From Promethearchaeota archaeon (GTDB taxonomy: Archaea; Asgardarchaeota; Lokiarchaeia; Sigyniarchaeales; SOKP01): a stretch of 64,000 nucleotides of DNA. This document shows, piece after piece, positions 3,446 through 59,531 of this stretch. The notes under the pieces were generated by a model, which saw only the letters and a list, made by a program, of their open reading frames with translations, did not search any database and was not told the origin of the DNA. Both the position numbers and the translations under genes were made by a program. The stretch spans positions 1-64,000 of the forward strand of contig SHMW01000015.1 in the NCBI GenBank assembly GCA_008080735.1, in the 5' to 3' direction. The first letter of the stretch is position 1. Each line of letters opens with the position of its first letter.

Positions 3446-3493
3446 AGATGAGAAGAATTCGACTTAAATATAATAATTTGTCTTTGGTTATCG

Positions 3494-5035
3494 ATGAATA
3501 GAGAATTCAATGAAAAAGAATTAGGCCTAATAACTACACCAGAAAAAACTGCTCGTTATTTAATCTCTAAACTGGGAGATATCAATAAAAATGGCAAAGT
3601 CTTGGATCCATGTGTCGGACCGGGCGTATTTATTAAGATTCTCTTAGAAAACAATATAGATCCTTCGCAAATATATGCGTTTGATCTCAATGAGAAATAT
3701 AAGAAACCCCTTGAAGAATTAGCTATCCATTTTAAGATTAAGGACACTCTCCTCGATATCAGTGAAGATAATTTTAGTAGATTCGATTTTATCGTAGGAA
3801 ATCCCCCTTATCTAAACAAATCGAGCAAATACATTAAAAAAAACAAAAACAAATTAAAAAAATTATACGGAAGTATAAATGCCCATGAAACATATTCAAT
3901 GTTCATAGTGAATAGTGTGTGGAGATTAAAGGAAGGAGGGATTCTGAGCTTTATCACAAGTGATTCATTTCTGACTTTAAAAACACACAAAAAGCTAAGA
4001 AAATTTATATTAGAACATTGTATCGTAAAAGAATTATTATTAGCTCCATCTGATTTATTTCTCAATCAAGATGTAAATACGTCACCAGCCATCATCGTTT
4101 TAGAAAAAAAAAGTGGAAAATCTAACCAACCTAAGAGATTAAATAACGTCATGAGGGTAATTCCAAGAGTTAAAAACGAGAATCAATATCAAAATCCGCC
4201 CAAAGTAATTAGATTTAAGCAAAAAAAATACCATCTTTTACCTTTCAATGTGTTTTTTATTGATATAGAAGAGGAAATTATTGATCTATTTGACCAATCT
4301 CCACGTATGAGAAATTATATGCGTGGTTTTATCGGGATGCACACCCATAACAATCGTAAGTATATAGCAGCCATAGAGGGCACAGAATTGAGCCAAATTT
4401 TTCAAAATCGAAATGAAAAAATTAAGAATCCCGAAAAAAAATATAAAATCATTCCCAGAAAATCATTAAACTCAGATGAATGGAAACCTTATATGAAACG
4501 AGGAGGCTTGGACCAATATTATCGCCCAATTATGGAAGGGTTAGATTGGAGGGAAGAATCCAGAAAGATTTATGATATCCCGAGTAATGCTCCATTTGAA
4601 CAGGAAGGGATTGTTATAAGTGGTGTAAGTTCACGATTAGCCGCTCGATATATGCCTCCAGGATGCTACTGGGATTCTAATAAGGCAATGGGTTTCATCA
4701 TTAAAGATTCTCGCTTTTCCATTGAATATATTTTAGGTCTTCTCAACAGTTCATTATATAATTATCTCGCTAAAGGTATAATCAATAATACTGCGAGTAT
4801 TCAATTAACGGGACTTCATTCGCTTCCAATTATATTGCCCGAAAAAGATGTTAAAATTAAGGTTGAAAAATTGGTAAGAGAAATAATTTCCAGTAAGAAA
4901 AAAAACGTACATTATGACTATTCTCGAGAACAAAAAGAAATCGATAGATTGATTTTTGAATTCTATGCTAAAAAGTTTGATTTTCCCATTTCACTGAAAG
5001 AAAAGTTGGAGAGAAAATATACGATTTACGCGTAA
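3494..5035 (+). CDS. N6-adenine DNA methyltransferase (TaqI/Eco57I-like gamma class), apparently orphan
   Basis: Motif I VLDPCVGPG, motif IV IVGNPPY, LKEGGILSFITS, and a TaqI-C-like C-terminus (YILGLLNSSLYNY). Confidence 0.88.
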   Translation: MNREFNEKELGLITTPEKTARYLISKLGDINKNGKVLDPCVGPGVFIKILLENNIDPSQIYAFDLNEKYKKPLEELAIHFKIKDTLLDISEDNFSRFDFIVGNPPYLNKSSKYIKKNKNKLKKLYGSINAHETYSMFIVNSVWRLKEGGILSFITSDSFLTLKTHKKLRKFILEHCIVKELLLAPSDLFLNQDVNTSPAIIVLEKKSGKSNQPKRLNNVMRVIPRVKNENQYQNPPKVIRFKQKKYHLLPFNVFFIDIEEEIIDLFDQSPRMRNYMRGFIGMHTHNNRKYIAAIEGTELSQIFQNRNEKIKNPEKKYKIIPRKSLNSDEWKPYMKRGGLDQYYRPIMEGLDWREESRKIYDIPSNAPFEQEGIVISGVSSRLAARYMPPGCYWDSNKAMGFIIKDSRFSIEYILGLLNSSLYNYLAKGIINNTASIQLTGLHSLPIILPEKDVKIKVEKLVREIISSKKKNVHYDYSREQKEIDRLIFEFYAKKFDFPISLKEKLERKYTIYA

Positions 5036-32137: not shown

Positions 32138-32307
32138 TCTCCAATTTTCATTTAATCTTTAAAAAGCTCCAAGTTTTTTCTTTTACTATTTTGAATTATC
32201 TTTTATTCATTAATGCCTCTCTTCTTCATTTTATATTATGTGAATAATATTGAGGTTTTTATGATTTAATTTTCAGAGAATAATGTGTTGAATTTAGATA
32301 AACTACA

Positions 32308-32658
32308 ATGATTCTCATGAATAATAAGAAAAATGGACATTCTGGGGAGAAAATCTATAGTTATACTATCATGGATATCCAGATAGAGTTATCTTCTGCT
32401 CAGAATGAAAGAACAAAACAAAGAAAGCGCTTTTCGTTAATTACCAAACTCGTAAATGACTTATTTAAATATAAAGAAAGAAAGGGATGTTATGAAACGA
32501 TTTCTAATCTTATTGTCTCGACGCTTATATCTTCTGATATGGATTGTCCACTTGATATCTATAGCTGCAAAGATGACTCGTTTGAGGATATCGACTATGA
32601 ATGCAAGAAAATACTGGAAAGTGAGCTTTTTGAGTTTTCTAATGAACTTCCGAATTAG
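32308..32658 (+). CDS. Hypothetical protein
   Basis: 116-aa ORF; no recognisable motif. Confidence 0.5.
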   Translation: MILMNNKKNGHSGEKIYSYTIMDIQIELSSAQNERTKQRKRFSLITKLVNDLFKYKERKGCYETISNLIVSTLISSDMDCPLDIYSCKDDSFEDIDYECKKILESELFEFSNELPN

Positions 32659-35050: not shown

Positions 35051-35797
35051 ATGGGAATATTTTTATTAACTATGGCAGATCAATTACAATTTTTTGTTCG
35101 GGGAAGTTTTAGTTTAATCTTCGTAATTATTTCTATATTGATTGGGCTTCGATTAATATCCAAATATTTTCAATATGGGCAAAAAAACTTCATCAGTGTA
35201 GGATTAACATGGATTTTTTTAAGTAGTTCGTGGTGGTGGTCGGGTTTTAATTTCATTGCAAATTTATTTAATTATTCCTTAAGTGAAACATCTTACTTGA
35301 TCTTATCAAATGGTTTTATCGCTCCTGCCCTTGTTAGCTGGTTATATTCGTTTACCACATTAGCATATGAACAATGGAAACAAAAGATACTTATTCTGAG
35401 CTTAGGAATTGCTATACCTTATGAGTTTATCCTTTTGATATTAATATTTGCCCAACCCACCTTAATCGGGTGGGAGGTTAGTGAAAATGTAATATCGAGA
35501 ACACCACTCACATTATCTGTTGCAATTATTGCGATCGTCATCGCTTTGATTACGGGGCTGATTTTCAGTAAAAACGCTATGAAAAGTCAGGATAAAGAAA
35601 TCAAGTGGAAAGGACGGTTTTTATTACTGGCATTTGTCCTCTTTACAATAGGGGCGGGATTAGATTCAGTCAGTTGGACGAGTTTCTTTATGATTATTTT
35701 AATTAGGTTGATTCTGATAATGAGTTCGATTATCTATTATATTGCATTTTTTCTCCCCGATAGGGTCAAAAAAGTTCTAATCAAGGAAGAATTATGA
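35051..35797 (+). CDS. Polytopic (about 7 TM) membrane protein, paralog of 25039..25773
   Basis: Same conserved motifs (KWKGRFLLLAF, YYIAFFLP). Confidence 0.8.
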   Translation: MGIFLLTMADQLQFFVRGSFSLIFVIISILIGLRLISKYFQYGQKNFISVGLTWIFLSSSWWWSGFNFIANLFNYSLSETSYLILSNGFIAPALVSWLYSFTTLAYEQWKQKILILSLGIAIPYEFILLILIFAQPTLIGWEVSENVISRTPLTLSVAIIAIVIALITGLIFSKNAMKSQDKEIKWKGRFLLLAFVLFTIGAGLDSVSWTSFFMIILIRLILIMSSIIYYIAFFLPDRVKKVLIKEEL

Positions 35798-54658: not shown

Positions 54659-54988
54659 TCACACTTTACAGATATCTTTCGTTTTGGCTTCAATATTGGA
54701 AACTATTAAGATTTTATCAAAAAATCCTTTCATATCCAAATAAAATTCATTGCGGGGTCCGAAAGTTTCAAGAAATCTATTCGAGATATACAATTTTAAA
54801 TTCTTTCTCTCGACAAGTTCTGCATATTGAATATCTAAATCTGAATCTGATGAATGTGAGATAATGGTGAGATTTGGACTATAAATTGCCGTGCATCCTT
54901 CTTGAATAGTATTAACATCCAATAATAAGGAATCAATTCTATGCTCTTGGATGTATGTTTTCGCAGACTCGGTCAGTTTTATTGACAT
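54659..54988 (-). CDS. HesB/IscA-like small protein
   Basis: True start is probably MSIKLTESAKTYI at 54988, since the ORF-track extension overlaps the tRNA. GC..YSP and LYIS pattern. Confidence 0.6.
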   Translation of the reverse strand: MSIKLTESAKTYIQEHRIDSLLLDVNTIQEGCTAIYSPNLTIISHSSDSDLDIQYAELVERKNLKLYISNRFLETFGPRNEFYLDMKGFFDKILIVSNIEAKTKDICKV

Positions 54989-55005: not shown

Positions 55006-55185
55006 TGCTCCCGGGGGGATTTGAACCCCCGATTTCCCGGCAAATTGGAACCCAATTGTACACTCAGGTTTTTACTATTATGGACACGGTTAATGGATGT
55101 ATGTCCATCGGCCATTTATAAGACCTGCGCTTGTCGATCAAGACAAGAAACCTATCGCTTGTTAACCAAGCTAAGCAACGGGAGC
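55006..55185 (-). tRNA. tRNA-Ile(UAU) with three introns: 21/22 (55133-55162), 37/38 (55071-55116), 45/46 (55034-55062)
   Basis: Removing 30+46+29 nt gives a 75-nt cloverleaf: GCTCCCG TT GCTT AGCTTGGTTA AAGC G CAGGT CT TAT AA ACCTG AGATC GGGGG TTCAAAT CCCCC CGGGAGC A. Introns 1 and 3 have BHB-like motifs; intron 2 does not fit a clean BHB. Confidence 0.8.
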
Positions 55186-55341
55186 AAATGATTTTTATTT
55201 GTTAGATAACAGCTCAGAGGAAATCTCTCAATATCACTAATCTCAGTTGGGTATCTATACCAAATCTATTTTGAGATATTGGAGCTATAATCCAGTATAA
55301 ATTATAAAAAATACTAAACCATAAAAATTTTTTTGTTAAAA

Positions 55342-58166: not shown

Positions 58167-59531
58167 TTAGGTTTTGATTTGTTTGTATGCTTTTTCAAGA
58201 CGAGCAACTGCTTTATCAATATCCTCTCGAGTGGAGCCAATAGCTGCATTCATAACAATATAAGGCGTCGGATATCCATTTACACAAGTTCCAAATGCTT
58301 TTTGGTTCGGATCATATACTCGTGGACCTGTTACCCGTAGGTTATATAAGGCACCGCCTAAGGCATAAAGTTGATCTTCTTTAAGGGTATTGAGAGTCAT
58401 CGCCACAGCTACGGGATTAAAGATATCCATAATTCTTTCATTTATATCTTTAGCAAAAGAGGAAAGCCGATCTTCTAGATACTTTCGGTTTTCTTGTTGG
58501 GTTTGGATCAGATCTTCATATCCTTGTACCCCTAAGGAAAGCATTGATATGAGAAAATTTACCACCGGAGACGCTGAAGCTCTACCAGGATAAGTCTGAC
58601 TGATAACTTCGATTTTTTCTTGTTCAGGTGAAGCGATGAGTGCACCGCCAACGGGACTGAGGAAATTTTTATCTGTAGATTGAATAATTGCATCAACTCT
58701 TCCCGCATCAATTGCAGATCTAATCATTTTCATCCATTCAGGGCTTTGAACACCATACGCGTTAACGATTATGTGAACGAGATTCTTCACTTTTGCAAAT
58801 TTGCTGATGCCTTTAACATCATCGGCTTCTCTTGGAGGAAAAAAACTCGTAAATGAAACGATAGCATAGCATTCATCGTCATATGCGTTTTGTATATCTT
58901 CGAGTGGGATTCTAACCGAGTCTCCAAAAATTGTGCCTTCCACTATTTTGGGTTCAAGCCCGAGAAATGAGATGGATTTTAAGATGGAATTATGGTCTAA
59001 TCTCGGTAGAAGTATTTTTCTCTTATTTTGAAGTTCTCTCTTGCTCCAGTCAGGTTTAAATGCGGATAATGTAAGTGCTAAAGACATTCCCGTTGCGATT
59101 GGGGTGACAATTGCCTTTTTGATATTCGGGAGACCACATTTTCTCAGAATATCCCGTGCCAGGTAATTGGTTATTTCATACATTATGGAGCCGCCCGGAG
59201 CTTTAGGTTGAGGGGCTGTGAGAAATCCACTCCGTCCTACACCATGACAGAATCCTCCAGAGGTTTTCAAGCTAAGTTTTGAGGCGATTCGTGCCTCTCG
59301 TTCACCTACTTGGGAGGCATTTTGGTCTTTATCAGTGTCCATATTCGCTAATATATGCAATAAGAACTCTATCTGCTCATCACCCCATCCTTCAGTAGGT
59401 ATTGCTTTTTGTTGGAATAATATTCTTATAGGGTCAATATATTGATTGAGGACAAGTTGACCTCTATTGAGCATATTTTCTGGAATTTTTGAATTTTTAA
59501 AAAAATTGATAATGTTATTTAAATCAACCAA
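58167..59531 (-). CDS. spcS: O-phosphoseryl-tRNA(Sec) selenium transferase (SepSecS)
   Basis: VGEREAR, HGVGRSG...QPKA.G, ATGMSL, NAYG, QSTDKNF (PLP Lys), YPGRAS, AAIG; tRNA-Sec nearby. Confidence 0.96.
   Translation of the reverse strand: MVDLNNIINFFKNSKIPENMLNRGQLVLNQYIDPIRILFQQKAIPTEGWGDEQIEFLLHILANMDTDKDQNASQVGEREARIASKLSLKTSGGFCHGVGRSGFLTAPQPKAPGGSIMYEITNYLARDILRKCGLPNIKKAIVTPIATGMSLALTLSAFKPDWSKRELQNKRKILLPRLDHNSILKSISFLGLEPKIVEGTIFGDSVRIPLEDIQNAYDDECYAIVSFTSFFPPREADDVKGISKFAKVKNLVHIIVNAYGVQSPEWMKMIRSAIDAGRVDAIIQSTDKNFLSPVGGALIASPEQEKIEVISQTYPGRASASPVVNFLISMLSLGVQGYEDLIQTQQENRKYLEDRLSSFAKDINERIMDIFNPVAVAMTLNTLKEDQLYALGGALYNLRVTGPRVYDPNQKAFGTCVNGYPTPYIVMNAAIGSTREDIDKAVARLEKAYKQIKT

Follow-up and report, generated by a model that had tools for sequence, protein, structure and literature searches.

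The sequence analysed here, hereafter the window, comprises 64,000 nt of a Promethearchaeota archaeon (positions 1 to 64,000 of contig SHMW01000015.1, assembly GCA_008080735.1) and carries on its minus strand a 180-nt tRNA-Ile(UAU) gene (55185..55006), whose three introns, the middle one above all, are the subject of this report. Removal of introns of 30, 46 and 29 nt yields a 75-nt cloverleaf that ARAGORN called as tRNA-Ile(tat), in agreement with an earlier note on this DNA, and the locus is a real isoleucine tRNA gene. The note had also anticipated that standard annotation would overlook the gene; indeed, the unspliced form was detected neither by ARAGORN nor by the Rfam tRNA model, and an Rfam scan of 53-57 kb of the window returned chance matches only. 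Exon 1 (55163..55185, 23 nt, tRNA positions 1-21) supplies the 5′ strands of the acceptor and D-stems together with the D-loop and is followed by intron 1 (55133..55162, 30 nt, position 21/22); all segments lie on the minus strand. Exon 2 (55116..55132, 17 nt, positions 22-38) contains the UAU anticodon (55120-55118), and its CUUAUAA is nearly invariant among 42 aligned orthologs. Intron 2 (55070..55115, 46 nt, position 38/39) precedes exon 3 (55063..55069, 7 nt, positions 39-45), and intron 3 (55034..55062, 29 nt, position 45/46) precedes exon 4 (55006..55033, 28 nt, positions 46-73), which provides the T-arm, the acceptor 3′ strand and the discriminator A73. The CCA is not gene-encoded.

All three introns display a bulge-helix-bulge (BHB) motif, with a 4-bp helix between two 3-nt bulges. 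Intron 1 has a strict BHB (helix UGGU/AUCG, bulges UAA/ACA, flanking helices of 3 and 4 bp) and intron 3 a BHB with the helix CCUG/CGGG and the bulges AGU/AAA, both as the earlier note described them; in each case four of four central pairs form at the assigned register and at no adjacent one. The middle intron, which the note had placed at 37/38, with internal exons of 16 and 8 nt, had to be moved. Position 37/38 was rejected with one of four central pairs, against four of four at 38/39, where a relaxed BHB has the helix UUAU/GUAA (partner strand 55075-55072) and the bulges AAA/AAA. All four pairs form at 38/39 in 43/43 distinct orthologs of the host's family, a set partly retrieved by a pattern that spans the intron end, and two of the four helix positions show pair-preserving substitutions among the orthologs. 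Because intron 2 sits at 38/39, the inner exons measure 17 and 7 nt; the mature tRNA sequence is identical with either placement. Introns 1 and 3 are patchy among the orthologs, and where one or both are lacking (L026, L030 and L121) the predicted junctions can be read in the DNA. Intron 1, missing from several orthologs, is dispensable. A hidden CAU micro-exon within intron 2 was considered and rejected, CAU being unconserved. Two subunits of the splicing endonuclease EndA are encoded in the genome, one with Tyr/His/Lys and the other without the His, a pair consistent with the (alpha-beta)2 type of endonuclease, able to cut non-canonical sites (PMC5829648).

The genome appears to depend on this tRNA for reading AUA. 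In a crude set of open reading frames (ORFs) from this genome, AUA accounts for 29 of every 1000 codons and for 30% of those encoding Ile. A search for tiaS, which the earlier note had suggested, found none in this genome by hidden Markov model (HMM) and tblastn (genome 93% complete). TiaS was found in 0/68 genomes of the host's own family and in 0/111 genomes across nine Asgard families, whereas 171 of 189 genomes in the remaining Asgard families have it. It is absent from the single-contig genomes of Promethearchaeum syntrophicum, Candidatus (Ca.) Lokiarchaeum and Ca. Harpocratesius repetitus as well as from the single-contig Atabeyarchaeia-2 genome, recognised by its tRNA coordinates, and present in Ca. 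Heimdallarchaeum aukensis, a 4.9-Mb Heimdallarchaeota genome, a Thorarchaeota genome and Freyarchaeum. In an incomplete tRNA inventory of the host, the only CAU tRNAs found were the initiator (contig C35) and the elongator Met (C88). A second ARAGORN call of Ile(tat), at C1:105532, turned out to be a mis-parsed Val(UAC). An exon-only Ile(UAU) pattern, biased towards known members, had matches in 32 genomes from families without TiaS and in one family that has it; the lone match in the latter (G182) was rejected as not being a tRNA. The spliced tRNA carries the Ile features A35, U36, A37, A38, A73, C4-G69, U12-A23 and a short variable loop, the list of identity elements being based on E. coli, and has G29-C41 in place of the E. 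coli identity pair C29-G41. With tiaS missing and AUA codons common, the tRNA-Ile(UAU) is, judging from the genome sequence, very probably the AUA reader of the cell in place of the tRNA-Ile2(CAU) that TiaS modifies to agmatidine, as the earlier note had supposed. Separately, many Asgard Ile tRNAs have A54 instead of U54 (T-loop AUCGAAG; L007, L008, L126 and L191), as does the Ile(GAU) of this genome (G000 C74:7561).

The anticodon and the intron number are new instances of known things, as archaeal Ile(UAU) tRNAs and three-intron Asgard tRNAs have both been published. The earlier note had regarded UAU as the eukaryotic solution and three-intron tRNAs as mainly known from Thermoproteales, and neither view is supported. 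In Nanoarchaeum equitans and Ca. Korarchaeum cryptofilum, tRNA-Ile3(UAU) likewise replaces tRNA-Ile2(CAU), and the Korarchaeum gene is also intron-bearing (PMC8450103, PMC6000648); neither paper describes an intron function. The present case differs from these in being the state of whole Asgard families, in having three introns and in the 38/39 site. Asgard tRNA genes with multiple introns, three- and four-intron genes included, have been tabulated (PMC11291895); their BHB introns, two to four per gene, likewise occupy non-canonical sites, and annotators often miss such genes. The main text of that paper mentions neither Ile nor UAU; its supplement lists an Atabeyarchaeia Ile-TAT gene, marked 'possible pseudo', which corresponds to our match at 35441 in genome G081. 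A 2026 preprint on hidden Asgard introns contains no Ile, UAU, TiaS or pseudouridine in its text (bioRxiv 10.64898/2026.10.13.758758). Unlike the other introns, which come and go, the anticodon intron described here is retained and conserved.

A conserved element in this middle intron had been overlooked by the earlier note. Near the 5′ end of the intron, a fold-back strand GGCC (55110..55113, minus strand; consensus GRCC) is complementary to G29-C32 of the exon, with a pairing probability of 0.98 in the folded precursor. It is followed by an intron stem of 7 bp with a variable loop (55080..55108; 55108-55102 paired with 55086-55080), and an ACA box lies at 55098..55100, 13 nt past the G that pairs with C32. 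Complementarity to positions 29-32 is complete in 41 of the 43 orthologs; the box is ACA in 41, AAA in one and AUA in one, and the spacing is 14 nt in three genes. The first 18 nt of the intron are conserved and the sequence 3′ of the box is variable. Compensatory changes occur at five of the seven stem pairs, with 98.6% of cells paired. As the earlier search pattern included the ACA, the search was repeated with exon sequence only: every ortholog recovered in this way retains the middle intron, in contrast to introns 1 and 3, and an ANA box stands at 13 or 14 nt in 30/30 genes of this set (ACA in 29/30). At the local level the fold-back, at -12.3 kcal/mol, is more stable than the splice fold, at -10.0 kcal/mol, and it is predicted to dominate the precursor of the window gene. 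By-eye inspection of eleven other tRNA genes of this genome with introns of the anticodon type revealed no such element.

The element extends beyond the host's family. Distant relatives use the canonical 37/38 splice site, yet the spacing persists: of seven model matches, six have 13 nt and one has 12 nt, and Ca. Lokiarchaeum and Ca. Harpocratesius also have 13 nt. Cultured P. syntrophicum and Ca. Lokiarchaeum possess a one-intron version of the gene. Five other TiaS-less families retain the 13 nt and the ACA and build the lower stem with tRNA nucleotides 21-26, giving 5.6 of 6 Watson-Crick pairs, compared to 4.6 when families are swapped, which points to exon-intron compensation. In metagenome matches assigned to Nanopusillus/Nanobsidianus, the intron is 18 nt long, shares the 11-bp fold-back and carries AGA at a spacing of 13 nt. 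The covariance model scored 65 candidates per genome, so distant members were missed; two loose search patterns performed at chance level, and from one of them only real tRNA rows were used. Taken as a comparison of sequences, these observations support strongly the view that the fold-back/ACA element is under selection. Several further loci were noted. One gene (L214, G060:C5 near 412418) shows an apparent additional intron, nested where the anticodon intron begins, and its removal restores 13 nt and ACA; three metagenome contigs (L292, L351 and L365) carry archaeal genes for tRNA-Ile(UAU) in which the introns are short and fold back; and one assembly (G355) has two differing tRNA-Ile(UAU) genes, on C5 and C359 (L114, L115), reflecting duplication or bin contamination.

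We suggest that intron 2 may serve as a cis signal for pseudouridine 34, the best reading available to us and one that we hold to be slightly favoured; the enzyme (Cbf5) and the target base (U34) could each as well prove wrong as right. In the presumed transcript, before splicing, intron 2 would refold the anticodon arm by pairing GRCC with G29-C32, stacked on the 7-bp stem, after which come one unpaired base and the ACA. A run of 13 nt followed by NCA is the geometry of tRNA nucleotides 61-73 plus CCA, so that U33 and U34 would occupy the places of U54 and U55. Cbf5, acting with Nop10 and Gar1, would bind the ACA through its PUA domain and isomerise U34 to pseudouridine with no separate guide RNA. 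Because pseudouridine uses its C5 for the sugar bond, Elp3 would be unable to add to it the C5 group that would permit reading of AUG as well. The precursor would then flip to the BHB fold, and the two-subunit endonuclease would excise all three introns. Cbf5, Nop10, Gar1 and Elp3 are all encoded in the genome.

This proposal draws on known properties of Cbf5. The archaeal enzyme (P. furiosus) modifies U55 in a guide-free manner only when the 3′ CCA is intact (PMC1616971) and also modifies, again guide-free, a T-arm-like rRNA hairpin (PMC6138745); ACA is the box bound by its PUA domain, with AUA, AAA and AGA also tolerated, and the distance from box to target acts as a ruler (PMC7991803). The roughly 12 stacked pairs, single unpaired base and NCA of a Cbf5 substrate are present here as 4 + 1 + 7 + 1 nt and ACA. 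As in guide-free substrates and H/ACA guides, an ACA/ANA box comes after the stem, and its distance from a loop U is fixed. Counted from the partner of C32 the spacing is 13 nt, and counted to U34 it is 14 nt; the H/ACA rule has 14-16 nt, and some orthologs have 12-14 nt. The element is not itself an H/ACA guide, as it has no two-sided pocket, no K-turn, no box 3 nt from a 3′ end and no existence as a separate RNA, but it may act as guide and substrate in one, with target, helix and box on a single molecule. There is an even chance, in our estimation, that TiaS-less archaea (the nine Asgard families and Nanoarchaeota) share such a self-guided U34 pseudouridylation and would require it to read AUA and not AUG. 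No literature on Asgard TiaS or agmatidine, or on pseudouridine linked to an Asgard tRNA-Ile intron, was found in a search that did not reach subscription papers, and the accessible literature offers no explanation of how archaea keep a UAU anticodon from reading AUG, the Met codon. If correct, the proposal would amount to a previously undescribed function of a tRNA intron, would settle the separation of Ile from Met in TiaS-less archaea, would give a selective reason for one intron being kept while others turn over, would give the H/ACA machinery a mode of action in cis and would parallel the way in which eukaryotic tRNA-Ile(UAU) gains pseudouridines through its intron.

A number of observations weigh against it. 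The loop is UUAUA plus 1-3 nt and lacks the UUCRA of a T-loop, and the ACA is internal instead of at the 3′ end, both of which set the element apart from known Cbf5 and H/ACA systems. The box is missing in one genome (G042) and is UCA in another (G045), and with a spacing of 12 nt in one gene and 14 nt in several, the target in some genes could be U33. The upper helix has just 2-3 bp in P. syntrophicum, Ca. Lokiarchaeum and Ca. Harpocratesius and a C31-A mismatch in several non-Loki genes, and its changes are one-sided only, since exon positions 29-32 barely vary. The Nanopusillus AGA overlaps the BHB and is therefore not independent evidence, and related genomes are non-independent samples.

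The strongest alternative, which we consider rather unlikely, is that the element is a modification signal for another base or enzyme: Cbf5 acting at U33 (by strict H/ACA counting) or at U36, Pus10 recognising the imitation of a T-arm, or TruD/Pus7 with an exposed U34-A35-U36-A37-A38 as its target. Both the spacing (12-14 nt) and the loop (6-8 nt) are variable enough to allow it, Pus10 and TruD are encoded in the genome, and the exposed sequence fits the Pus7 motif U-N-U-A-R. Archaeal pre-tRNA-Tyr receives pseudouridine 35 through aPus7 or an H/ACA guide, and in the Sulfolobales case the Cbf5 machinery acts on an anticodon of an intron-containing precursor, but with a trans guide RNA (PMC2651775). 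Pus10, however, needs no CCA (PMC1616971) and so leaves the conserved ACA at its fixed distance unexplained, and modification of U33 would leave the AUA/AUG problem unsolved.

It is less likely still that the fold-back controls only folding or splicing order, or briefly hides U34, with U34 staying unmodified and the ribosome discriminating against AUG; an unmodified U34 occurs in Mycoplasma mobile. The fold-back does compete with the BHB fold and is the more stable of the two. Intron 1 holds a copy of the 5′ strand of the anticodon stem (27-31; UAGGUUU, about 55154-55148) that could hold the displaced 39-43, with 6-9 bp possible in 28 of 37 orthologs and a few matching changes. This copy may assist a fold switch or may just reflect an origin by duplication, introns being able to originate as local duplicates. 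Control of folding does not account for two adenines being invariant, and their distance fixed, in lineages with two different lower-stem architectures, and hiding of U34 would stop at splicing, with Elp3 present.

The earlier note had suggested that the genome may decode AUA in a eukaryote-like way, and in its strongest form this would make the gene the ancestral type, passed on by Asgard archaea, of the eukaryotic tRNA-Ile(UAU) and of the pseudouridines that depend on its intron. The eukaryotic pre-tRNA-Ile(UAU) indeed depends on its intron for pseudouridines 34 and 36, and Cyanidioschyzon merolae likewise has a three-intron tRNA-Ile(UAU) (PMC9602550); the two systems share the UAU and, by our reading, an anticodon-loop intron serving wobble modification, and the trait is spread across nine Asgard families. 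Heimdallarchaeia, Thorarchaeia and Freyarchaeum nevertheless keep TiaS, and the identified Heimdallarchaeia gave no Ile(UAU) match with the exon-only pattern, biased as it is towards known members. Eukaryotes use Pus1 for these pseudouridines, the proposed enzyme, signal and intron positions here are different, and Nanoarchaeota share the trait. A seemingly eukaryote-like GCUC acceptor stem was also discarded, being unconserved among orthologs. Inheritance is improbable: the TiaS map across Asgard families argues against a simple ancestral state of eukaryotes, and its distribution suggests that the likeness is probably convergence, not ancestry.

That the excised, possibly circular intron works in trans as a small H/ACA-like guide is very improbable, although the stem and the ACA are wholly intronic in the Loki genes, and the euryarchaeal tRNA-Trp intron that acts as a C/D guide offers a precedent. 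In five other families and Nanopusillus the lower stem requires exon 21-26 and so cannot form after excision, and both a second guide strand and a K-turn are lacking. Splicing at 33/34-35/36 to a UAA (Leu) anticodon, or a pseudogene, hardly merits belief: the A-run lets those registers yield a 7-nt loop and 33/34 reaches 4/4 pairs in 2/43 orthologs, but they were rejected as unconserved, against the complete 38/39 helix in all 43, a short variable loop unlike that of Leu, a canonical 37/38 BHB in distant orthologs that also gives UAU, and stems that covary.

Around the gene, a HesB/IscA-like ORF (54659..54988, minus strand; PF01521, E=1.2e-5, just under the cut-off) begins 17 nt downstream of the tRNA. 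The start chosen by the ORF finder, a GTG at 55063, falls within the tRNA; the first ATG lies at 54988, and the GTG extension is spurious, as the earlier note had recognised. Just upstream of the tRNA (window 55190-55300, minus strand) is a long imperfect hairpin (z = -2.5) followed by ACA, present as a single copy in the genome and without a clear match in relatives. A SepSecS gene (PF05889; window 58167-59531) is located 3 kb from the tRNA. Elsewhere in the genome, contig C5 of G000 carries AT-rich tRNA genes unlike the archaeal set of the host (954-1232, 3489-3562 and 32265-32337), some with inserts, which may stem from a mobile element or from contamination, put at 7% for the genome. An intron-containing tRNA-Lys(UUU) gene is found no more than 1 kb from cbf5 (G000 C1:34205 and C1:35202-35305).
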